A DNA stretch of 64,000 nucleotides from a virus (IMGVR_UViG_3300009424_000011:1-64000); one strand, 5' to 3'. Positions 2,467 to 11,396 are shown, numbered from the stretch's first letter. Program-made: numbers and translations. Notes: generated by a model not told the origin, from the sequence alone.

Positions 2467-3045
2467 TCAGAGATAGGGCGAGGGCGAAGTCACCTTGACG
2501 CTGGCAACAAAGAGCGGTTGCGAAATGGCCGACAGCCGGTCAGCGAGGGCTCGCGAATCGATCACGAAGCGCGGCGATCGTGAACTGTATCCGGCCAGAA
2601 ACTCTGCTTCCGACAGAAGCTCTACGTCGGTCGCAGAGTGGAAGCGCATCTGGCGCTTGGCCGAGCCCGAGTGACAGCCAAGGGTGGTGGCAACGAAATC
2701 ATTGACCTTCGATTGCTCGCCGAAGAGGCTGGCGAAGAATCGGTTCTGTTCCTCAGGAGTGGCGTTGACGGTCCAGTTGTCCACATTCCGCCCCAGAACC
2801 ATGAGAGCCCCGGTCCGCAGACCCGGAAGCCAAGAACCAACCACGTTGCGTTCGACACCGAAGTCGGCCGCTGTGGAGTGAACCATCATGTTGAGAGCGC
2901 CGGAGACATCCACGGTCACCATCTGTCCGGTCAAGCCGGGCCATCCACTGTAAGAGGCGAAACGCTCAACGTCCTGCGAACTCTTACCAAGCAAGCGCTG
3001 TAGCTGGCTGATGCCGAATGTTTGCTGGCGAGCAGAAAATTCCAT
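2467..3045 (-). CDS. Hypothetical protein, possible N-terminal HTH
   Basis: 192-aa ORF with GGTGGA RBS and its own TTGACA promoter near 3080-3106. Confidence 0.6.
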   Translation of the reverse strand: MEFSARQQTFGISQLQRLLGKSSQDVERFASYSGWPGLTGQMVTVDVSGALNMMVHSTAADFGVERNVVGSWLPGLRTGALMVLGRNVDNWTVNATPEEQNRFFASLFGEQSKVNDFVATTLGCHSGSAKRQMRFHSATDVELLSEAEFLAGYSSRSPRFVIDSRALADRLSAISQPLFVASVKVTSPSPYL

Positions 3046-3113
3046 TAGTTATTCCACCTACATTTTTGAGAGACACATCGTTAAGATAAAAGCCAACGAT
3101 TGTCAATCGAAAA

Positions 3114-3449
3114 TTACGGTGTGGCGGGAGAGGTAGGAATCGAACCCACGTCAGCGGGTTTGGAATCCGCTGTCTTACCATTAGACGACACTCCCATAGT
3201 GCCAACCCGACCGCGAAGATAATCTAACGCTTCGGGGAGCCCGGTGATCGTCTGCCGGGCGACCACTGGGAAACGGATATTGATGTGGACGACATCGCCG
3301 AACACGCGGATCAAACCAGCACCGGGAAAACGTCCTCGGCCGGGCCGCCGGTTGTTCCAGCGGGTCCGCTTGTAGTGGGTGAACTCTTCGCCCTCGTGGG
3401 GAACTCCAAGGATCACAGCGCACTCAGCATAAAAATCGTCTACGTTCAT
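3114..3449 (-). CDS. Hypothetical protein whose 3' end reads through tRNA-Trp
   Basis: GAGGTG RBS then ATG; no stop codon before the tRNA. Confidence 0.55.
   Translation of the reverse strand: MNVDDFYAECAVILGVPHEGEEFTHYKRTRWNNRRPGRGRFPGAGLIRVFGDVVHINIRFPVVARQTITGLPEALDYLRGRVGTMGVSSNGKTADSKPADVGSIPTSPATP
3122..3195 (-). tRNA. tRNA-Trp(CCA)
   Basis: Cloverleaf; loop TTCCAAA; CCA encoded. Confidence 0.9.
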
Positions 3450-3463
3450 TTCACCTCATAATC

Positions 3464-3549
3464 TGGAGCCGCCCACAGGATTTGAACCTGCGTCCTTTCG
3501 GAACCTCCGGGTTGCAACCGGGTGCCTTACCAGACTCGGCCAAGGCGGC
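3464..3549 (-). tRNA. tRNA-Cys(GCA) with long variable arm
   Basis: Loop TTGCAAC; U73; variable arm GTTCCGAAAGGAC. Confidence 0.85.
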
Positions 3550-3553
3550 TTGA

Positions 3554-3596
3554 TTGACATATCATGTGAACTAAGCGATTTCACATGATATGTCAA
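3554..3596. repeat. Perfect 17-bp inverted repeat with TTGACA at both outer ends
   Basis: TTGACATATCATGTGAA-N9-TTCACATGATATGTCAA. Confidence 0.85.
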
Positions 3597-3634
3597 AGCA
3601 TATATTATCGGGTGGATATATGCTTCAACGTATG

Positions 3635-3722
3635 TGGAGGAAAGCGGGGGCATCGAACCCCTGACCCCGAAGGGTCACGACAGCGTTCCAAGCTGATTAG
3701 GGAGCCGACCCACGCGCTTTCC
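3635..3722 (-). tRNA. tRNA-Ser(GGA), 8/4 fold
   Basis: 8-bp acceptor GGAAAGCG/CGCTTTCC; 4-bp T stem; loop TTGGAAC; long variable arm. Confidence 0.85.
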
Positions 3723-3730
3723 ATATGTTG

Positions 3731-3818
3731 TGGAGGAAGGTGGAGGCATCGAACCCCTGACCCCGAAGGGTCACCCCGGCTTAGCAAGCCAGTTGAGGAG
3801 CCGACCTCGGCACCCTCC
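3731..3818 (-). tRNA. tRNA-Ser(GCT), 8/4 fold
   Basis: 8-bp acceptor GGAGGGTG/CACCTTCC; 4-bp T stem; loop TTGCTAA. Confidence 0.85.
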
Positions 3819-3824
3819 TCTAAT

Positions 3825-3900
3825 TGGAGCCGTTTGTCGGAATCGAACCGACTCTTCTCTCCCCTACCAAGGGAGTGCAGTCCCAGCTTGCTCAAACGGC
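3825..3900 (-). tRNA. tRNA-Thr(GGT)
   Basis: Loop TTGGTAG; cloverleaf; CCA. Confidence 0.85.
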
Positions 3901-4041
3901 GTTACTTGTTACAACCTCCAGCCATAAACTGACGATCGATCTCTTCGACCACGTTGAACAGGGAACCATCAGGTTCAACCAGAACAAACGTGAACTCCCC
4001 GATCTGCCGCACAGTGCAGCGATGGATCGGAGCTAAATTTT

Positions 4042-4115
4042 TGGATGCCCCTGTTGGGATCGAACCAACGTCTTCGCCTTCAAAGGGCGCTGACTTACCA
4101 TTAGCCGAAGGGGCA
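4042..4115 (-). tRNA. tRNA-Gln(TTG)
   Basis: Loop CTTTGAA; U1-A72. Confidence 0.9.
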
Positions 4116-4165
4116 TCAGGTTGGTCAGTTTGTTCGTCAAGAACTTCCATAACTAACTCCATAAT

Positions 4166-4240
4166 TGGATGCCCGAGCAGGGGTCGAACCTACATTTCAG
4201 GATTCAGAGTCGAGCGACTTGCCAATTAGTCGATCGGGCA
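4166..4240 (-). tRNA. tRNA-Gln(CTG)
   Basis: Loop CTCTGAA; two mismatches in the anticodon stem. Confidence 0.85.
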
Positions 4241-4256
4241 ATTGTTCCACGGCTTA

Positions 4257-4332
4257 GGGGTGACCGGCGGGATTCGAACCCGCCATCTCCGGCATCACAA
4301 GCCGGCGCATCATCCATCTCTGCCTCGGCCAC
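4257..4332 (-). tRNA. tRNA-His(GTG)
   Basis: Loop TTGTGAT; C73; ends CC(T); G-1 not encoded. Confidence 0.85.
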
Positions 4333-4354
4333 ACCTAAACCGTGGAACATTATC

Positions 4355-4429
4355 TGGAGCCGGATGAGGGAATCGAACCCTCGTCTTCGCGTTACAAAGG
4401 CGCTGCTGCTACCACTGAGCTAAACCGGC
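4355..4429 (-). tRNA. tRNA-Thr(TGT)
   Basis: Loop TTTGTAA; cloverleaf; CCA. Confidence 0.85.
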
Positions 4430-4444
4430 ATTGAACTTCATATC

Positions 4445-4529
4445 TGGTGGGTGCGGTGGGACTCGAACCCACAAAGCGGCCGAATTTTAAGTCCGGTGAG
4501 TCTACCAATTCCCCTGTCGCCACGCACCC
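4445..4529 (-). tRNA. tRNA-Leu(TAA), atypical fold
   Basis: Loop CTTAAAA; A73; short variable region; insertion before the D arm. Confidence 0.8.
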
Positions 4530-4543
4530 GTAGCTTGTTGTGT

Positions 4544-4626
4544 TGGTCCGCGATCCCGGACTTGAACCGGGAAGCCTAGGCCACGCCCTCTCAAGACGCT
4601 GCGTTTACCAATTTCGCCAATCGCGG
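4544..4626 (-). tRNA. tRNA-Leu(GAG)
   Basis: Loop TTGAGAG; variable arm; A73. Confidence 0.9.
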
Positions 4627-4634
4627 ATTTAAGT

Positions 4635-4718
4635 TGGTGTGAGCGGGGAGACTCGAACTCCCAAAGCTACCGGGTCTGAGCCGGCAAGGTATACCATTCC
4701 CTATGAAGCCACGCTCAC
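4635..4718 (-). tRNA. tRNA-Leu(CAG), atypical fold
   Basis: Loop CTCAGAC; same insertion architecture as Leu(TAA). Confidence 0.8.
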
Positions 4719-4762
4719 GTAACTCTTATTAAGCTCCTGTATTCACAGGTATTCTCCTAAAA

Positions 4763-4855
4763 TGGTGGGTGACCGAGGACTCGAACCTCTCGCCATCCGT
4801 CCCCCACGTTCTGAAACGGCACCGGGGTTACAGGCCGGCAGGGGGAAGATCACCC
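4763..4855 (-). tRNA. tRNA-Tyr(GTA), rearranged (no conventional D arm)
   Basis: Loop CTGTAAC; acceptor and T arm with ACCA; TCCCCC near the 5' end pairs with GGGGGA after the variable arm. Confidence 0.7.
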
Positions 4856-4867
4856 GAAACTTGTGAT

Positions 4868-4907
4868 GAAACGAAAATAGCGCCAGAACCCGGTGGGCTC
4901 TGACGCT
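4868..4907 (-). terminator. Attenuator terminator, operon C
   Basis: AGCGTCAGAGCCC-ACC-GGGTTCTGGCGCT followed by ATTTTCGTTTC. Confidence 0.75.
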
Positions 4908-4917
4908 CTGAAAATGC

Positions 4918-5014
4918 TGGAGGAGCGAGTGGGATTTGAACCCACGGAACACATCTCTCGATGGTCCAACGGTTTTCGAGACCGCCGCAATAACCCAGAC
5001 TCTGCCACCGCTCC
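4918..5014 (-). tRNA. tRNA-Ser(CGA)
   Basis: Loop CTCGAAA; long variable arm. Confidence 0.9.
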
Positions 5015-5049
5015 TCTTGGAAAGAGAGCAGCGCGTCAGGGCTGCTCCC

Positions 5050-5133
5050 TTAGAAGGGTGACAGGGAACTATACTGGCTATGCCAGCATAGTAAGGAGCC
5101 CGTAAGGCTTTGCAAGGCGGTCTGTGTGAACAT
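5050..5133 (-). CDS. Leader peptide C, MFTQTALQSLTGSLLCWHSQYSSLSPF
   Basis: ATG lies 7 nt after the -10 box (apparently leaderless); 21 of 26 non-initiator codons are Ser/Leu/Thr/Gln/Cys/Trp/His/Tyr, the downstream tRNA set. Confidence 0.85.
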   Translation of the reverse strand: MFTQTALQSLTGSLLCWHSQYSSLSPF

Positions 5134-5140
5134 GCTGCGA

Positions 5141-5169
5141 AGTATATGGAAGGAAGTTAAAGGAGTCAA
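5141..5169 (-). promoter_or_regulatory. sigma70 promoter of tRNA operon C
   Basis: TTGACT-17-TATACT; GACTC overlaps the -35; A-tracts upstream. Confidence 0.85.
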
Positions 5170-5211
5170 CACTTATTTTTGCTGACGGTGTTTTTTTTTT
5201 TGATCTGGGCG

Positions 5212-5281
5212 TGGAGCCCCCGGCCGGAGTCGAACCGACGCCTTAGAGCTTAGAAGGCTCATGGCCCGCCTCGGCGGGGGC
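5212..5281 (-). tRNA. tRNA-Arg(TCT) with truncated D arm
   Basis: 70 nt; loop CTTCTAA; perfect acceptor; CCA. Confidence 0.75.
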
Positions 5282-5288
5282 GGTGATC

Positions 5289-5363
5289 TGGTGCAAGAAG
5301 ATGGGTTCGAACCACCGACGCGTAGGTTTTCAACCTACCGCTCTACCACTGAGCTATTCCTGC
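5289..5363 (-). tRNA. tRNA-Phe(GAA)
   Basis: Loop TTGAAAA. Confidence 0.92.
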
Positions 5364-5369
5364 AATCTC

Positions 5370-5445
5370 TGGTGCCGCCTCAGGGACTCGAACCCCGGTC
5401 TTGGGCTTCGGACGCCCGCGCTCTCTCCAGTTGAGCTAAAGCGGC
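5370..5445 (-). tRNA. tRNA-Arg(CCG)
   Basis: Loop GTCCGAA. Confidence 0.88.
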
Positions 5446-5456
5446 ACTGACTTATC

Positions 5457-5530
5457 TGGTAGCCCTACCGGGGCTCGAACCCGGTTTCTCGCCGTGAAAG
5501 GGCGGACTCTTACCCATAGAGGATAGGGCC
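5457..5530 (-). tRNA. tRNA-Glu(TTC)
   Basis: Loop CTTTCAC. Confidence 0.9.
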
Positions 5531-5538
5531 ATATAAAT

Positions 5539-5615
5539 TGGTGGTCTGCGAGGGAGTCGAACCCATCAACCTTCCGCTTCGTAGGCGGTTGCTCTTCCAG
5601 TTGAGCTTCCAGACC
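5539..5615 (-). tRNA. tRNA-Arg(ACG)
   Basis: Loop CTACGAA. Confidence 0.88.
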
Positions 5616-5634
5616 GAACTCGTAAACTAATTCA

Positions 5635-5708
5635 TGGAGGCCCTACCGGGGCTCGAACCCGGTTTCTCACCGTGAGAGGGTGGACTCTTACCCATAGAGG
5701 ATAGGGCC
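5635..5708 (-). tRNA. tRNA-Glu(CTC)
   Basis: Loop CTCTCAC; near-duplicate of Glu(TTC). Confidence 0.9.
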
Positions 5709-5766
5709 TCATATGGTCATATATGGCACACAAGACGGGCTTGTAGGTCATATCTGACCGGTTAAC

Positions 5767-5875
5767 TGGCGCAGCAGCCGGGATCGAACCGACATCTTCC
5801 GGTTCTTCGCCCGGCCATCCTAGTCCCAGAGGTCATGACACTCTGTCCCCGTTGTCGGGGATTAGACGATACTGC
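5767..5875 (-). ncRNA. tRNA-like RNA with two extra hairpins in the D loop and an 8-nt anticodon loop
   Basis: T arm GTCGG-TTCGATC-CCGGC; GCCA end; 6-bp acceptor. Confidence 0.6.
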
Positions 5876-5879
5876 AAAC

Positions 5880-5954
5880 TGGCGACCGTGACGGGATTCG
5901 AACCCGCAACCTTCGGATAGACAATCCGCTGCCCAACCGTTGGGCTTCACGGCC
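5880..5954 (-). tRNA. tRNA-Asp(GTC)
   Basis: Loop TTGTCTA; G73. Confidence 0.9.
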
Positions 5955-5966
5955 AATAATAAGTGA

Positions 5967-6042
5967 TGGAGCGGCCGGCGGGGATCGAACCCGCGCTGAC
6001 GGAGGGTGGAAGCCTCCCGCTCTACCGCTGAGCTACGGCTGC
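5967..6042 (-). tRNA. tRNA-Gly(TCC)
   Basis: Loop CTTCCAC; U73. Confidence 0.9.
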
Positions 6043-6070
6043 ATCATCACTCATCACTAACAACTTCGAC

Positions 6071-6145
6071 TGGAGCGGGTAGCGGGGATCGAACCCGCGA
6101 CCTTCTACTTGGCAAGCAGGCGCTCTACCACTGAGCTACACCCGC
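6071..6145 (-). tRNA. tRNA-Gly(GCC)
   Basis: Loop TTGCCAA; U73. Confidence 0.92.
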
Positions 6146-6171
6146 ATCTAGTCGTAAACTATTGATATTCT

Positions 6172-6247
6172 TGGTAGACCGAGTGGGGTTCGAACCCACG
6201 ACCTCAAGATTAAAAGTCCCGCGCTCTGCCTACTGAGCTACCGGTCC
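6172..6247 (-). tRNA. tRNA-Lys(TTT)
   Basis: Loop CTTTTAA. Confidence 0.92.
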
Positions 6248-6265
6248 ATGCCAAGAACCAGCCGG

Positions 6266-6304
6266 GAAACGAAAAACGCCCCACCGGGCGACCGGTAGGG
6301 CGTT
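6266..6304 (-). terminator. Attenuator terminator, operon B
   Basis: AACGCCCTACCGG-TCGC-CCGGTGGGGCGTT followed by TTTCGTTTC. Confidence 0.8.
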
Positions 6305-6322
6305 CAAAAATCGATGTCGTTT

Positions 6323-6398
6323 TGGTGGACCTTGTAGGGCTTGAACCTACCACCTTGCGGTTAAGAGCCGCCTGCTCTACCTACTGAGCTAAAGGTCC
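6323..6398 (-). tRNA. tRNA-Lys(CTT)
   Basis: Loop CTCTTAA; A73. Confidence 0.92.
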
Positions 6399-6434
6399 GT
6401 CAAAACGACACCGATAGCTCTACGCACTACCGGG

Positions 6435-6497
6435 TTACGAGGTGAAACCTCGTTCTTCGCCTCTCCGGCGATCTCGTTTGGTAAATCCGTAGGTCAT
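6435..6497 (-). CDS. Leader peptide B, MTYGFTKRDRRRGEERGFTS
   Basis: AGGA upstream; 14 of 19 non-initiator codons are Lys/Gly/Asp/Glu/Arg/Phe, the downstream tRNA set. Confidence 0.85.
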   Translation of the reverse strand: MTYGFTKRDRRRGEERGFTS

Positions 6498-6550
6498 AGC
6501 AGTTACTCAAAATCCTGTTTGGTGGACACTGTGTCCGTTGTTGAAGCCGA

Positions 6551-6579
6551 ACTATATGTGATTCGATTCGTTATGTCAA
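6551..6579 (-). promoter_or_regulatory. sigma70 promoter of tRNA operon B
   Basis: TTGACA-17-TATAGT; tandem CGAATCGAATCA in the spacer. Confidence 0.88.
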
Positions 6580-6608
6580 CACAAAAATCACACTGGCGTA
6601 TTTTTAAT

Positions 6609-6785
6609 TTACCCTGCGAGGAGGGGCGGCGTCGCCAATTCGAACTCAGCCCCAGTCGCCGTGGTGGCAATGATCCGGTCACCCTTGGCTTCGATGTCAG
6701 CGACGTTGACGATCTTACCGCACGAATGAGTGATGGTCATACCAGCACCAGCCCGGCGGATTTTCCAGCTATACAAAGTGTTCAT
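6609..6785 (-). CDS. Small hypothetical protein (58 aa)
   Basis: AAAGGA RBS before ATG (MNTLYSWKIRR...). Confidence 0.6.
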   Translation of the reverse strand: MNTLYSWKIRRAGAGMTITHSCGKIVNVADIEAKGDRIIATTATGAEFELATPPLLAG

Positions 6786-6847
6786 GTCGGTTCCTTTAGC
6801 ATGATTGCTTCGGCCGACAATAGGCCAAATTTTGGCCGTGTCAAGTA

Positions 6848-6925
6848 TGGTGGAGCCGGTGGGAATCGAACCCACCTCACAGACCTTGCAAGGGTCCGTC
6901 GCCTTCCCTTGGAACATGCGACCCC
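6848..6925 (-). tRNA. tRNA-Ala(TGC)
   Basis: Loop CTTGCAA; G3-U70; atypical D arm. Confidence 0.85.
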
Positions 6926-6931
6926 AAACTG

Positions 6932-7006
6932 TGGTGCTTCGTGAAGGTGCTGCCCCTCCTACCTCTGCCTTGTCACGGCAGCGCTCTACTGGTGAGCTAA
7001 CGAAGC
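6932..7006 (-). tRNA. tRNA-Val(GAC), non-canonical T loop
   Basis: Loop GTGACAA; T loop GGCAGCA. Confidence 0.8.
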
Positions 7007-7007
7007 G

Positions 7008-7081
7008 TAATCCCGGTAGGATTTGAACCTACGTTTCATCTCTTATGAGGAGAGAGCTTTAGACCACTAAGCTACAGGATC
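7008..7081 (-). tRNA. tRNA(CAT), Ile2 or Met
   Basis: Loop CTCATAA; CCA not encoded. Confidence 0.8.
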
Positions 7082-7083
7082 AA

Positions 7084-7473
7084 TTATTTCTTATACCAGC
7101 CATTCAGGCTCGGATTGTGGTGTTCGATATGGCAATTATGACATAACACAACACATTTGGCGAACTCTTTCATTATAGTTTCTTCTTTGTGATTCGAAAG
7201 CTCTCTTAAAGTAAGCTCGAAACCTTTTGAAGTCTCATCTGTATGATGAAAACACAAAGCAGCTAGATTATCTCTGTAACCACATTCTTCACAACCACCT
7301 CCTCGAAGGTTTATCAACTCCATTTTTCTTTTCAAGCCTCGGGCTTGTTGTTTTTCGTAGAGTTGATTCCTCACATTACCGTTTTTGTTCTGACATGCTC
7401 GTGAGCAAAACTTGGTCTGTTTACCAGTCAATTCCGTTTGGCAAGTCAGACATAAGACGTTCATCTCTGTCAT
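7084..7473 (-). CDS. HNH endonuclease inserted in the tRNA array
   Basis: CxxC...FCSRAC, CEECG, FHH and LCHNCHIEHH motifs; AT-rich relative to flanks. Confidence 0.85.
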   Translation of the reverse strand: MTEMNVLCLTCQTELTGKQTKFCSRACQNKNGNVRNQLYEKQQARGLKRKMELINLRGGGCEECGYRDNLAALCFHHTDETSKGFELTLRELSNHKEETIMKEFAKCVVLCHNCHIEHHNPSLNGWYKK

Positions 7474-7781
7474 TAAAAATCCAAACGAGCGACGTATTTT
7501 CCTTCGCCGATCGTGTCGAGGTAACCATCGCGCTGGGCTTCCCAGCCAAGTCCGCGATCTGCTACCTCTACCGCCAAGAGCGCGTCGCGATTGTCCCGGT
7601 TATCAGCGGTCAAATCCGCTTGGGCCAGTGCGACACCTTCCTGATAGTCCGAGAGAAACTGCCCATCATGCGATCTCGACCAATGTTCCCGGACACCTTT
7701 CCATGTGGTATCAGACGGGCCCGGATCGGTCTCCCGGAGTTTTCGTCCGGGTCGATCGTAGCTGATGTTGTAGCGTTCCAC
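7473..7781 (-). CDS. Hypothetical protein
   Basis: AGGAG RBS; 102 aa; stop overlaps the HNH start. Confidence 0.6.
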   Translation of the reverse strand: MERYNISYDRPGRKLRETDPGPSDTTWKGVREHWSRSHDGQFLSDYQEGVALAQADLTADNRDNRDALLAVEVADRGLGWEAQRDGYLDTIGEGKYVARLDF

Positions 7782-7796
7782 TCACTTCTCCTAAAT

Positions 7797-7880
7797 TGGC
7801 TCGGCGGGGAGGGGTCGAACCTCCGCCCTTTCGGGGACACCGGTTAACAGCCGGGCACATTACCACTCTGTCACCACCGA
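7797..7880 (-). tRNA. tRNA-Asn(GTT) with long variable arm
   Basis: Loop CTGTTAA; U1-A72; G73; variable arm GTCCCCGAAAGGGC. Confidence 0.85.
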
Positions 7881-7888
7881 ACATAAAC

Positions 7889-7976
7889 TGGTAGCGAGAC
7901 CTCAACCTACTGATCAACCGGGAGTGCGAGTCGTCAACTCATCCGCCGGCCGAATGTTCGGTCTATTAGTCTCGCT
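7889..7976 (-). ncRNA. CCA-terminated non-cloverleaf RNA
   Basis: 9-bp stem AGCGAGACT/GGTCTCGCT followed by ACCA; no T loop. Confidence 0.55.
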
Positions 7977-8027
7977 CTTACAGGGAGACTAACCCCTGCG
8001 TCCTCACCCCGTCAAGGGTTTGGTAAC

Positions 8028-8105
8028 TGGTCCACAGAGCAGGGCTCGAACCTGCGCAAGACGCCGATTATCGGTCGGCCGCTCTACCAACTGAGCTATC
8101 CGTGG
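8028..8105 (-). tRNA. tRNA-Ile(GAT)
   Basis: Loop CCGATAA (C33). Confidence 0.88.
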
Positions 8106-8106
8106 A

Positions 8107-8182
8107 TGGTTGGTGATGCAGGCTCTGCCCCTGCCGCCTCTGGTATGTGACACCAGCGCTCTCCTGAATGAGCTAATCACCA
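8107..8182 (-). tRNA. tRNA-Val(CAC), non-canonical T loop
   Basis: Loop GTCACAT; T loop GGCAGAG. Confidence 0.8.
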
Positions 8183-8212
8183 ACAAACTCTTTGTCCCAT
8201 CCGATTTGACGG

Positions 8213-8323
8213 ATGCCGGGGACGAAATCAACAAGGCGCTCTAACCACCTGAGCTACACCGGAGCCTTGCCCCGGTGGCCGGATTCGAACCGGCGTCCTC
8301 CTCGTTCTACAACCGCCCCGCAT
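8213..8323 (-). ncRNA. Circularly permuted tRNA mimic (YrlA/Y-RNA-like)
   Basis: Order is T arm, loop-closed acceptor stem, D arm; the 5' and 3' ends pair in place of the anticodon arm. Confidence 0.7.
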
Positions 8324-8461
8324 ACGCCGGTTAATTACTCCGGCTTAGACGCGTCTCAACGAGACGGTTCGAAACGTCCCAGTGGTTTTACTAGCTCCGC
8401 TGATCGTGCGGGGCACCTGACGATCTCGGCGATCGACGAGGAGGTGGCTGGGTCACCTATC

Positions 8462-8532
8462 TGGTAGCAAAGGGTGGATGTGCGCCACCGGGTCAAAGGC
8501 TTATGAGGCCCCGCCCCCACTGAGGCTCTGCT
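8462..8532 (-). tRNA. Degenerate tRNA-Met(CAT)
   Basis: Loop CTCATAA; ACCA; tiny D arm; T loop CGCACAT. Confidence 0.6.
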
Positions 8533-8538
8533 ATAACT

Positions 8539-8617
8539 TGGTCAGGCGGGCAGGATTCGAACCTGCGATCCCCTCCGTCCGAGGGAGGTAGGGACGGCCA
8601 GACTCCCCTACCGCCTG
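8539..8617 (-). tRNA. tRNA-Pro(CGG)
   Basis: Loop CTCGGAC; C1-G72; A73. Confidence 0.9.
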
Positions 8618-8629
8618 ATACTCTTGAAA

Positions 8630-8705
8630 TGGTCAGGATCGTAGGGCTCGAACCTACGGCCTTCCGGTCCCAAACCGGACGCTCTTCCAACTGAGCTAGA
8701 CCCTG
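8630..8705 (-). tRNA. tRNA-Pro(TGG)
   Basis: Loop TTTGGGA; C1-G72; A73. Confidence 0.9.
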
Positions 8706-8742
8706 AAACGAAATCGGGGGCCATGTTGCCATGGCCCCCGAT
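8705..8742 (-). terminator. Attenuator terminator, operon A
   Basis: ATCGGGGGCCATG-GCAA-CATGGCCCCCGAT followed by TTCGTTTC, abutting tRNA-Pro. Confidence 0.85.
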
Positions 8743-8771
8743 CGAGATAACTGCTTGGAGAGTGAAGTGGC

Positions 8772-8861
8772 CTAGCCACCAACCATCTGTTCGCACGCCA
8801 TCGCGACCGGGACCATAATGGCCGGTGCTGCTGGGTTATTCATGGCGACTACGTTGAACAT
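8772..8861 (-). CDS. Leader peptide A, MFNVVAMNNPAAPAIMVPVAMACEQMVGG
   Basis: AGGA upstream; 22 of 28 non-initiator codons are Asn/Val/Ala/Met/Pro/Ile, the downstream tRNA set. Confidence 0.88.
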   Translation of the reverse strand: MFNVVAMNNPAAPAIMVPVAMACEQMVGG

Positions 8862-8913
8862 GGTTGAACTCTGAAATCCTGTTTGGCCGGAACATCCCGG
8901 TCTTGATGATCGA

Positions 8914-8942
8914 AGTGTAACGACATCCGATTCGAATGTCAA
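8914..8942 (-). promoter_or_regulatory. sigma70 promoter of tRNA operon A
   Basis: TTGACA-17-TACACT; CGAATCG in the spacer. Confidence 0.88.
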
Positions 8943-9130
8943 CTAAAAAATTGCACTCACCCATTTTATCTGGTTTCGGAGCAGGGCGGCTCCTTTAACT
9001 CTCTGTCACCTGCTTGAGGATTCAAGGGGCTCCATGGAACCCACAGGAACTAAATGCGAGGATATTCGAACCACCCTTGGTTACCTACCGGGTCACCCCT
9101 GCGGACAGGGAAGTGAGAAAAACTCGAACA

Positions 9131-9488
9131 TCACTCGCAACAAGGAGAGCGGACTAAAGTTCGCGAATCATCCGTCCCGGTTTCCCGACGGTGCCCGCCT
9201 CCCTTGTTGCAAGTGAAACATCTGTGATCAGGCCGGCGGCCAAAGCACTAGCAACACCCATACACGGTTTTTATCCGGGTCTGTCGTCTCCGTTCGACGG
9301 GAGTCCACTCGCCTTAAACCTATCTGGTGCCGCCGGCCCGATCACAAATGGATCACTCGTAATGGGGCCTCTCGAAGCTCGGCCGGGTTCACTACGCCCT
9401 TCCTTCCGCCGGTTCAGTGTAAACCCACGGATCGCCGGTTAGGTCGCGTGACCGCCGACATTCCGCTGAGAAGCTTCATTACGAGTGA
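9131..9488 (-). ncRNA. Three abutting stem-closed ncRNA modules (9131-9216, 9219-9350, 9353-9488)
   Basis: Each is bounded by a roughly 17-22 bp terminal inverted repeat; 2-nt spacers between modules. Confidence 0.65.
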
Positions 9489-9495
9489 AGCGTTA

Positions 9496-9664
9496 TGGAG
9501 CCCGGAGGTGGAGTCGAACCACTGGCCTATCGTTCCACAGGAGATCAACCCTGCTTTCCGATCCACCGCGCCGCTTTCGAAGGCGACTTCACCTAAACAT
9601 CCCTGACCAACTCCCGACAACTTTCCATGGAAGCTACCAATCTGTTGTGGCGGTTACTCCGGGC
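9496..9664 (-). ncRNA. 169-nt tRNA-like RNA (acceptor plus T arm with a large insert)
   Basis: GCCCGGAG/CTCCGGGC followed by TCCA; T arm GTGG-TTCGACT-CCAC. Confidence 0.65.
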
Positions 9665-9667
9665 TAT

Positions 9668-9848
9668 CGTTTTCTATGATGACCCAGCGGGTTTGCAGCG
9701 ACGCCCAATGCGATCAAGCCACGGCTCGAATTACTGGACCTGATGCTTCGACGATCCGTCTGCATTCGAGAATTGCTGGGATCGACCTGACCTGCGGGAA
9801 CCGAGGGGAAGGTAGCTAACCTTCTTTGCTGGGCCAACATAGAAATCG
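9668..9848 (-). ncRNA. Stem-closed ncRNA module
   Basis: CGATTTCTATGTTGGCCCAGC pairs with GCTGGGTCATCATAGAAAACG. Confidence 0.6.
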
Positions 9849-9853
9849 AAAAA

Positions 9854-10200
9854 TGGAAGCAGGTTGAGATTACACCCGCTACGATCCGTCATTCGTCAGA
9901 TTATAGTGACCTTGCGAGTCACCTTCCCGACTTATCCACCAAGCCCCTTGCGGTAGCTCAGTTCCAGACCAACGCCGCCTTTTTCTCCCGGTTCTCACGG
10001 GACCGCTGGCATTTGCGGTGACACTGCATGATATTCGGCAGTTTCGATTCCGCTGACTGTCTCCAGCCATTAAGGGCTTGCGGGCCCAACGAAACTTCTT
10101 CCACCAACCAACCATCACCTTGCGAGATCAGGTCGGGCCACATTGAGGCAAGCCTCTATGGCATTAGGCGTCTTTCACATGCAGTCGTGGCAATCTTTGC
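9854..10200 (-). ncRNA. Large structured RNA, possibly GOLLD-like
   Basis: About 350 nt non-coding directly after a tRNA; five CGCAA(G) motifs consistent with GCAA tetraloops; 3' GGGTGTAATCTCAACC. Confidence 0.45.
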
Positions 10201-10203
10201 GTT

Positions 10204-10279
10204 TGGAGCAGACTGGTGGGTTTGAACCACCGATCTCACGATTAAGAGTCGTTTGCATTACCAACTATGCTAAGTTTGC
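10204..10279 (-). tRNA. Second tRNA(CTT), nominal Lys, with U73
   Basis: Loop CTCTTAA; cloverleaf; TCCA end. Confidence 0.8.
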
Positions 10280-10418
10280 AAGGTTATCCCGGTGAAGCGG
10301 TCCTCGCGGACCTGACTGCGCTTGCCTGAATTGACCGATCGGGACCGGCGGGGTTAAGTGGCCTTACCCCCTTTATGTGAGTTGCCTCACACTATCGCCA
10401 TCAGGCTGGCATTCCGTC

Positions 10419-10447
10419 TCTCTATTAGGTGATTCGATTCGTGTCAA
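10419..10447 (-). promoter_or_regulatory. Promoter of the ncRNA cluster, double GANTC
   Basis: TTGACA-CGAATCGAATCACCTAA-TAGAGA. Confidence 0.65.
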
Positions 10448-10459
10448 CACTTAATCAAA

Positions 10460-10692
10460 TCAACTCGTCGAGATATTCCATGACTTACCGCGTGACAGGA
10501 CCACTTGCGCTGGCTTGGCCTATCGTGCTGGGGGCCGGTGATCTCGGGGCTTCCCCCGTTCTACCCGCCCTTGACACGAAACGTATCCGCACCAGACCGG
10601 CCAATGACTCGCTCGCGCCCAAGTTCGACGCTGCGGGGTCAGAGTGACTCCGGCTGTTCCTGCCCCTCGGAAAACCATGGAGCAGACGTTGG
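10460..10692 (-). ncRNA. Putative ~230-nt ncRNA with paired ends
   Basis: Own promoter at 10699-10727 (TTGACA-17-TAATTC); TCCATGGTT/AGTCATGGA and GCAGGA/TCCTGT pairings; no convincing ORF. Confidence 0.5.
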
Positions 10693-10771
10693 AGGGCCGA
10701 ATTACCGATTCTCACTGTCAGTGTCAACATAAAAATGACAGTCAGTGAAAATTATTTGGCTCTCACTATAA

Positions 10772-10804
10772 GGAAAGGGCCGCCACCTTCGTGACGGCCC
10801 TTCC
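10772..10804 (-). terminator. Intrinsic terminator
   Basis: GGAAGGGCCGTCAC-GAAG-GTGGCGGCCCTTTCC. Confidence 0.6.
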
Positions 10805-10814
10805 GTTTGCGTGG

Positions 10815-11396
10815 TTACGCCTTGATGTCAGGCGTGCCACGCCAGATGCGAAGACCTTCGACCTTGGGGCCCTTGCCATTGACCTGCTCGTAAACCGTGC
10901 GGCTCCAGAACAGGCACTTGTGGCGCTTGCGGGCAGCAGAAAGCTTGCCCTCGGCCTTGTCAGTCATCGGGATGAAGAACGAGAGACCAACGATCTGTCC
11001 GTTCTCATCCTTGTAGGCGGGCGGAAGCTCGCCGAACGGGTATTCCTCGACACCAGCCGGCCGGCCGGAACGTCCGACCATCACAGCTTCGGTGATCAGC
11101 ACCTGCTTGGTGCCGCCGCGAAGCTCTTCGACCGGAGCGGACTTACCGGAAGCCGAAGCCCCCTGCTTTTCCATCACCGGAGCAGCGGCATCTGCCTGAC
11201 GCTGCTTGCCCAGACCAGTAGCGGCCTTGGCGCGGGTCTTGGGAGCCGCCTTGGCACGGGGCTTCGAAGCGGCCTGCTGCTGCTTCTCGCTCAGTGCCTT
11301 GGAGGCTTCGTTCGCAGCGTCGAGGGCTGCCTGATCGATCTTCTTGCGCCCACGGGCGGGGGTTTTCACTGCATTCGTCATGTCTGTATCCTCCAT
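10815..11396 (-). CDS. Basic Lys/Ala-rich putative DNA-binding protein
   Basis: Histone-like N-terminus; C-terminal YPF...SFFIP...RIWR domain; start may be the second Met. Confidence 0.6.
   Translation of the reverse strand: MEDTDMTNAVKTPARGRKKIDQAALDAANEASKALSEKQQQAASKPRAKAAPKTRAKAATGLGKQRQADAAAPVMEKQGASASGKSAPVEELRGGTKQVLITEAVMVGRSGRPAGVEEYPFGELPPAYKDENGQIVGLSFFIPMTDKAEGKLSAARKRHKCLFWSRTVYEQVNGKGPKVEGLRIWRGTPDIKA

Follow-up and report, generated by a model that had tools for sequence, protein, structure and literature searches.

Leader-peptide attenuators are known from enterobacterial amino-acid operons, among them trpL and hisL, and some are multivalent: the ilvGMEDA leader senses Ile, Leu and Val, and the thr leader senses Thr and Ile. 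In pheST of Escherichia coli (pheM leader), phenylalanyl-tRNA synthetase is attenuated according to the supply of its cognate charged tRNA. Here, we analysed the stretch IMGVR_UViG_3300009424_000011:1-64000 (hereafter the window), the first 64 kb of an IMG/VR virus record of 96.8 kb that is estimated to be ~57% complete. A dense array of tRNA genes lies on the minus strand at 3122–8942 and is organized in three units (operons A, B and C), in each of which a promoter precedes a short open reading frame (ORF), with a hairpin and a group of tRNA genes behind it. With a probability of about 0.7, and on the basis of sequence statistics and comparative RNA structure, we read these units as three ribosome-mediated (leader-peptide) transcription attenuators, each gating one block of tRNA genes in this marine phage.

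As in the ilv and thr leaders, a short ORF rich in the regulatory codons follows the promoter, and the choice between terminator and antiterminator would be made by the position of the ribosome. Unlike those leaders, the present ones are phage-encoded, with tRNA genes and not biosynthetic enzymes as the output; they list 6–8 amino acids with one to few codons each, compared with runs of one to three; a tRNA lies within the switch in B and C; and leader C is apparently leaderless. Attenuators of this class regulate genes for biosynthesis, transport or synthetases, whereas tRNA genes and a few small inserted ORFs are found downstream here. The likeness to pheST is that a component of the decoding apparatus would be attenuated by a leader peptide in response to the supply of cognate charged tRNA, but pheST is concerned with one amino acid and its output is a synthetase. 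Because the tRNAs themselves are the output here, it is to the loss of tRNA, and not of the amino acid, that the loop would respond in a useful way. T-box riboswitches likewise report tRNA status by transcription attenuation; they bind uncharged tRNA through a specifier codon and need no translation, unlike the mechanism proposed here. An Rfam scan of 2500–11000 (E ≤ 1) returned tRNAs, GOLLD and weak chance matches only, with no T-box or other cis-regulator.

The reasons for which phages carry tRNA genes are debated and include matching of codon usage, replacement of a decaying host pool and evasion of anticodon nucleases. To our knowledge, the regulation of phage tRNA genes is essentially unknown. 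The long tRNA array (trn operon) of Anabaena sp. PCC 7120 consists of mobile supernumerary tRNA genes induced by translational stress (PMC8421152); it resembles the present array as a horizontally mobile supernumerary set that would be turned on when translation is impaired. Its description makes no mention of a leader peptide, attenuation or a terminator (PMC8421152), and its control has been assigned to the transcriptional repressor TrcR (PMC10272220). The paper on the related phage vB_EliS-L02 gives degradation of the host pool as a reason for phage tRNAs and does not mention leaders, array promoters or terminators (PMC9127768). The first-pass annotation of the window knew of no description of such control for phage tRNA arrays; a full-text literature search similarly found no published account, and no report of leader-peptide control of tRNA genes. 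The arrangement is most likely a new form of attenuation with tRNA as the putative output.

Composition and conservation of the leader ORFs

Promoter-like sites were found exactly at the three places proposed in the first-pass annotation (Table 1). With scores of 10–11/12 they are among the best sigma70-type matches in the region, and a set-enriched ORF lies behind each of them. The sequences and in-set counts of the three leader ORFs could be reproduced as annotated (the counts, given in Table 1, exclude the initiator residue), and all 20 amino acids occur in the leader of their own set. Codons 3–22 of leader A form an unbroken in-set run, the final two codons of leader B (Thr, Ser) are out of set, and leader C includes the rare residues Cys, Trp, His and Tyr.

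The permutation of leader composition against tRNA set, suggested with the annotation, was carried out as an exact count by dynamic programming of every 6/6/8 division of the 20 amino acids (116,396,280 divisions). The actual tRNA partition places 57 of the 73 leader residues in set, which is the maximum attainable and is reached by only three of all divisions (P = 2.6e-8). Full coverage, with each amino acid present in 'its' leader, is given by 159 divisions only (P = 1.4e-6). Ranked singly by set enrichment among the 619 ATG-started small ORFs in the window, leaders C, A and B came 1st, 4th and 12th, respectively, so that the strength of the match lies in the joint fit and the position and not in any single peptide. 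The rank of leader B alone is what could be said for pure coincidence, in which the ORFs would be by-products of a structured leader RNA; this is hardly credible in view of the count of equally scoring divisions, of ORFs that remain open and in-set in all homologues, and of an unrelated Caulobacter phage block that has its own matching leader. A physico-chemical coincidence is also unlikely, because set members that are out of character for their peptide are present and conserved: leader B, although charged, has two Phe; leader A, although hydrophobic, has three Asn; and leader C has Cys, Trp, His and Tyr.

Among cultured phages, the nearest relatives are CbK-like siphoviruses that infect alphaproteobacteria (Erythrobacter phages vB_EliS-L02 and XM05; Sphingobium phage Lacusarx), and further uncultured contigs were located by degenerate pattern scans. 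About ten phage genomes and contigs related to the window share the layout, with the same order of promoter, leader and tRNAs. The three-promoter arrangement is present in vB_EliS-L02, XM05 and several uncultured contigs, and Lacusarx retains the B and C cassettes. Homologous leaders were compared for all three operons (seven A, eight B and eight C), and set coverage was complete in each of the 23 (6/6 in A, 6/6 in B and 8/8 in C). At columns with an in-set majority residue, 39 of the 52 distinct variant residues remain within the amino-acid set of the block, compared with a baseline of 0.29–0.38 for random single-nucleotide non-synonymous changes (P ~6e-8, not corrected for phylogeny). Leader C of Lacusarx is rearranged, shorter and diverged in sequence, yet 20 of its 21 residues are in set.

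Co-variation of leader and tRNA content, which the annotation had proposed as a check, was seen in Caulobacter phage CcrBL9. Ahead of its different block (Pro-Thr-Lys-Leu(x3)-His-Ala-Ser(x3)-Trp) there is an annotated ORF of 39 codons, with 33/38 residues in the set of that block and a coverage of 8/8 (p = 3.8e-7). This ORF is conserved in phages RB23 and C1 with one substitution, which is in-set. All of the computational checks suggested with the annotation supported it, and comparison of the sequences confirms the feature as real and conserved.

The hydrophobic leader A and the highly charged leader B have plausible small-protein characters, and the ORFs might be taken for trans-acting peptides (membrane or nucleic-acid-binding) in which the match in composition is incidental or reflects a supply of needed tRNAs. 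We regard this as very improbable: membership of the set is conserved rather than the sequence (most clearly in leader C of Lacusarx), the tails are variable while each set member is always present, and each ORF overlaps or abuts a conserved terminator/antiterminator switch.

All three leaders are probably translated, as hinted by the in-set substitution pattern, by one leader B homologue with a GTG start and AAGGAG 8 nt upstream, and by the position of the leader C ATG at the predicted 5' end. This ATG begins 7 nt past the -10 hexamer, a spacing that is repeated in the homologues whose sequence was read and that implies a leaderless mRNA for leader C.

Predicted terminator–antiterminator switches

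In the proposed mechanism, a host-type promoter would give rise to a transcript that opens with a 20–29-codon ORF made of the amino acids of the downstream tRNAs. When decoding is fast, the ribosome would reach the end of the leader, and the segment able to sequester the terminator arm would be covered (B) or refolded into the leader hairpin (A); the intrinsic terminator would then form and transcription would stop. When any aminoacyl-tRNA of the set is scarce, an upstream stall would allow the antiterminator to take the 5' arm of the terminator, with read-through into the tRNA genes of the same set. Each of the three decoding groups would thereby have its own supply loop with negative feedback. 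That slow decoding gives more transcription is the sign suggested by the folding models, and the natural trigger may be a host tRNA pool that decays in the course of infection, or defences that cleave tRNA.

An intrinsic terminator was found between the leader and the regulated genes in all three operons. The GC hairpin with a U-rich tail, which the first-pass annotation placed between each leader and most of the tRNAs, has this position directly in A; in B and C strong terminators follow the first tRNA, so that tRNA-Lys(CTT) and tRNA-Ser(CGA) would be outside the control. The annotated trp/his/ilv-type layout held for A and B, in which conserved, mutually exclusive pairings link an antiterminator to the ORF in silico, placed such that the position of the ribosome on the leader would select one of them. 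In C, the predicted partners are inconsistent.

Terminator A lies 30 nt past the leader stop, ends 1 nt before tRNA-Pro and shows compensatory changes at eight stem pairs across homologues. RNAalifold analysis of six A homologues gave a 5' hairpin, a long ORF-internal hairpin and the terminator. In the ORF-internal (1:2) hairpin, codons 2–15 face codons 16–26 and 88–97% of cells are paired. Region 2 can pair either with the 5' half of the leader (1:2) or with the stretch ending in the terminator 5' arm (2:3). Equilibrium folds were replaced by folds ending before the terminator 3' arm, with ribosome masks. In folds extending to the terminator loop, the 5' arm of terminator A pairs with codons ~14–23 in five of the six homologues; the sixth (L012, an uncultured contig) was uninformative as detection of the arm failed. 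The 2:3 duplex (codons 13–24 with the extended 5' arm) has an energy of -31 to -36 kcal/mol (z of -3.6 to -5.1 relative to shuffles) in 6/6 homologues, is far stronger than that with any other transcript window, and holds in XM05 and L012 despite different terminator sequences. The 2:3 antiterminator survives a ribosome mask at codons 2–13 and is lost with a mask at approximately codons 14–26. In these models operon A is of trp-type 1:2/2:3/3:4 architecture: a stall in the first half of the leader would block 1:2 and leave region 2 to capture region 3.

In terminator B, 96.6% of cells are paired, with two compensatory pairs. Ribosome-mask folds of six B homologues placed the partner of the terminator 5' arm at stop+3/+4 to +14/+15, and a duplex scan returned the same best partner in 7/7 B homologues (-15 to -19 kcal/mol, versus -7 ± 2.5 for shuffles). 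The 11-pair core of this antiterminator is 92% paired, compared with 36–47% when slid, and the flank helix contains five compensatory pairs; core and flank helix together enclose tRNA-Lys(CTT), around which there is a conserved helix of 28 bp. The antiterminator partner is displaced only with the ribosome on the last two codons or the stop, and the last two codons are out-of-set in all eight homologues. This coincidence of the masking codons with the conserved out-of-set codons supports the classical sign, in which an upstream stall gives read-through.

The invariant loop of the hairpin abutting the leader C stop is perfectly complementary to an invariant GCGTCAG in the 5' arm of terminator C. 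An ORF-internal hairpin in leader C shows covariation, and for the 3' arm of the post-stop hairpin the 5' acceptor and D region of tRNA-Ser is a possible alternative partner, with covariation. Lys is encoded by AAA throughout and Ser hardly ever by TCG, the codons used being those that the pre-terminator tRNA does not serve; this is suggestive, in a set of closely related homologues.

The leaders could also be translated sensors with a post-transcriptional output, the position of the ribosome altering the folding of the long-range helices around tRNA-Lys(CTT) and tRNA-Ser(CGA) and thereby the processing or stability of the precursor. The enclosure of the first B tRNA within a conserved helix with compensatory changes, and the alternative covarying pairing of the C post-stop hairpin with tRNA-Ser, would suit such a role. 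We nevertheless consider it unlikely, as strong covarying intrinsic terminators with T-rich tails are present in all three cassettes and there is no tRNA inside the operon A switch.

A number of observations limit or weigh against the proposed mechanism. The leaders touch 29 of the 33 anticodons, compared with 29.6 in simulations of the same peptides with genome codon usage, and contain 55 distinct codons, compared with 51 (P = 0.07). Matching at the level of isoacceptors was dropped since the codons are sampled no better than expected from the codon usage of the genome; the leaders, annotated as codon-matched, are matched to amino acids. In A and B, ~16 nt separate the ATG from a Shine-Dalgarno-like AGGA, and the coverage of Val and Tyr in the window depends on non-canonical tRNAs. 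Full-transcript equilibrium folds with ribosome masks always favour the terminator (P ~0.97), so that the switch rests on kinetic reasoning. In B and C, ~130–145 nt including a whole tRNA lie between the sensed segment and the terminator, and the ribosome or the refolded structure must therefore persist for seconds. Antiterminator C is weak, with predicted partners that vary among homologues and ribosome positions. In A, the in-set codons 14–22 are within region 2, where a stall should mask the antiterminator, and the only Ile codon of leader A in the window (codon 15) is among them; that these codons too are in-set is left unexplained by the simple model. Arrays of Rhodobacter phage RcXuper have no matching leaders. 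In Lacusarx, operon A keeps its promoter and has no leader ORF, ~300 nt of ORF-free, GC-rich sequence extending to the first tRNA (7710–8018) with no Rfam family in this 5' stretch; Lacusarx has lost or never had leader A. The device is thus dispensable.

One further difficulty bears on the sign of the response. A simple footprint mask at the stop codon of leader A leaves the 2:3 pairing unblocked, so that termination there depends on re-forming of the 1:2 hairpin. The same parts might then operate with the opposite sign, efficient translation of the leader licensing read-through and a stall allowing the small stop-abutting hairpin to terminate or to lock the OFF state. The small hairpins in B and C, which begin 1–3 nt past the stops and have weak U-rich tails, could be unwound by a terminating ribosome, as this alternative would have it. 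It is nonetheless quite improbable: stalls at codons 2–13 of A free the antiterminator with the terminator 30 nt past the stop, which is the classical geometry; the codons that mask the antiterminator in B are exactly the conserved out-of-set ones; the small hairpin of B is displaceable through a 10-nt toehold of the tRNA-flank helix; and there is no obvious benefit in halting tRNA synthesis when those tRNAs are scarce.

Taking these points together with the leader-peptide attenuator reading, we think it probable that phage tRNA arrays of this kind are demand-driven supply loops. A 'roster' leader would sample all of the downstream amino acids in a single short round of translation and open a terminator on slow decoding of any of them. 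In this lineage three such independent sensors would split the 20-amino-acid repertoire, the first tRNA would be folded into the antiterminator in two of them, and decay or cleavage of tRNA would be detected and compensated group by group. This use of attenuation would be a new one, present in several unrelated phage lineages. If this is true, tRNA supply is feedback-controlled by decoding speed, which would give direct support to the view that phage tRNAs replace what is lost, and classical attenuation gains both a new class of output and leaders in which many amino acids are listed at once. The phage could then detect and compensate host tRNA decay or tRNA-cleaving defences, and the cassettes could be used as compact reporters that show how much of an individual aminoacyl-tRNA is available. 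The proposal is immediately testable, since cultured relatives exist (vB_EliS-L02 of Erythrobacter litoralis, XM05 and Lacusarx) together with an independent example in phages of the model organism Caulobacter vibrioides CB15.

tRNA genes and neighbouring elements

Coordinates of the features are collected in Table 1. ARAGORN with default settings called 26 tRNAs across 3122–8942. Leu-CAG, Ser-GCT and Ser-GGA were called by ARAGORN only at a relaxed threshold, and Val-GAC, which has an unusual T-loop, by Rfam only; Val-CAC, Leu-TAA and the Tyr-GTA-like gene have non-canonical sequences and were assigned from folds of our own. At the corresponding places, relatives have canonical tRNAs for Val and Tyr. 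The annotated division into non-overlapping sets that together cover all 20 amino acids stands if the relaxed, Rfam-only and own-fold tRNAs are counted, and does not stand on default ARAGORN calls alone.

Table 1. Features of the three tRNA operons (window coordinates).
Feature	Position	Strand	Description
Promoter of operon A	8914–8942	-	TTGACA, 17 nt, TACACT; same place in relatives
Leader ORF A	8772–8861	-	29 codons + stop; 22/28 residues from P, M, V, I, N, A
Region 2 of attenuator A	8790–8825	-	Leader codons 13–24; alternative pairing in 1:2 hairpin or 2:3 antiterminator
Terminator A	8706–8743 (hairpin 8743–8712)	-	14-bp GC-rich stem, GCAA loop, TTTCGTTT tail
Operon A tRNA block	6848–8705	-	Pro-TGG, Pro-CGG, Val-CAC (non-canonical), Ile-GAT, Asn-GTT, Met-CAT, Val-GAC (odd T-loop), Ala-TGC
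Two ORFs inserted in operon A block	7084–7781	-	
Promoter of operon B	6551–6579	-	TTGACA, 17 nt, TATAGT; 11/12
Leader ORF B	6435–6497	-	20 codons + stop; 14/19 residues from K, G, D, E, R, F
Segment abutting leader B stop	6411–6433	-	5' part CCGGTAGTGCGT: predicted small local hairpin, or antiterminator with terminator 5' arm
tRNA-Lys(CTT), first of operon B, upstream of terminator B	6323–6398	-	ARAGORN
Terminator B	6264–6305 (hairpin 6305–6274)	-	13–14-bp stem, TTTTTCGTTT tail
Remaining operon B tRNAs	5212–6247	-	Lys-TTT, Gly x2, Asp, Glu x2, Arg x3, Phe
Promoter of operon C	5141–5169	-	TTGACT, 17 nt, TATACT
Leader ORF C	5050–5133	-	27 codons + stop; 21/26 residues from S, Y, L, T, H, Q, C, W
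Hairpin abutting leader C stop	5024–5049	-	Stem covaries, loop CTGACGC invariant
tRNA-Ser(CGA), first of operon C, upstream of terminator C	4918–5014	-	ARAGORN, Rfam
Terminator C	4869–4907 (hairpin 4907–4879)	-	13-bp stem, ATTTTCGTTT tail; stem covaries
Remaining operon C tRNAs	3122–4862	-	Tyr-GTA-like, Leu x3, Thr x2, His, Gln x2, Ser x2, Cys, Trp

Both tRNA-Val genes (GAC at 6935–7006 and CAC at ~8110–8186, minus strand) fold as cloverleaves and are missed by ARAGORN; their T-loops are GGCAGCA and GGCAGAG, compared with the usual TTCRANY. The Tyr-GTA-like gene (~4770–4860, minus strand) has an aberrant D region. An unassigned tRNA-like element in operon B (~5770–5875, minus strand) combines a canonical T-arm and CCA end with a long D-region insertion and a CAT triplet in the anticodon-like loop, and is conserved in vB_EliS-L02 (6274–6390 there). 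Should this element function as a tRNA for Met or Ile, the division of the amino acids into three sets would be imperfect. Between tRNA-Pro and tRNA-Ile, a weak match to YrlA (Y RNA-like) was found at 8216–8331 on the minus strand (37.5 bits, E = 1.7e-5). The sequence resembles the 3' half of a tRNA joined to a 5' half behind it, as might be seen in a permuted tRNA-like element; a weaker YrlA match is present at the same relative place in Lacusarx.

Small ORFs are scattered among the operon C tRNAs. The ORF at 7084–7473 (minus strand, 129 codons) inside operon A is of low GC content, has pairs of Cys and a motif of the CHNCH type, and on visual inspection looks like an HNH homing endonuclease, without a Pfam match. 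A Pfam search of seven ORFs in and beside the array gave no matches. No RtcB, peptidyl-tRNA hydrolase or CCA-adding enzyme was found in the 96.8-kb record, itself only ~57% complete.

In many of the array promoters (for example 8942–8914, 6579–6551 and those of relatives), CGAATC(A/G) stands just before the -10 hexamer; within this motif is GANTC, the CcrM methylation site of alphaproteobacteria. Some relatives (vB_EliS-L02, 4857–4888, and two others) have a strong promoter-like site within operon A (TTGACG or TTGACT, 17 nt, TATACT) that ends 2 nt before tRNA-Asn, and in these block A may be partly transcribed independently of the leader. In vB_EliS-L02 a fourth promoter and a 37-codon hydrophobic, Leu-rich ORF with a good AAGGAG (8607–8860) stand directly before tRNA-Leu(TAA) and the tmRNA gene. 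This ORF was not counted as a leader, its Leu codons being all CTN, which do not sample tRNA-Leu(TAA), and its character resembling that of a membrane peptide.

A full-length match to GOLLD RNA is located at 9861–10307 on the minus strand, ~1 kb upstream of operon A (122 bits, E = 1.5e-32, below the gathering score of 150). A tRNA-Lys(CTT) is embedded in this match (10204–10279, minus strand), and XM05 and one uncultured relative have a tRNA-Lys(CTT) at a comparable upstream position.

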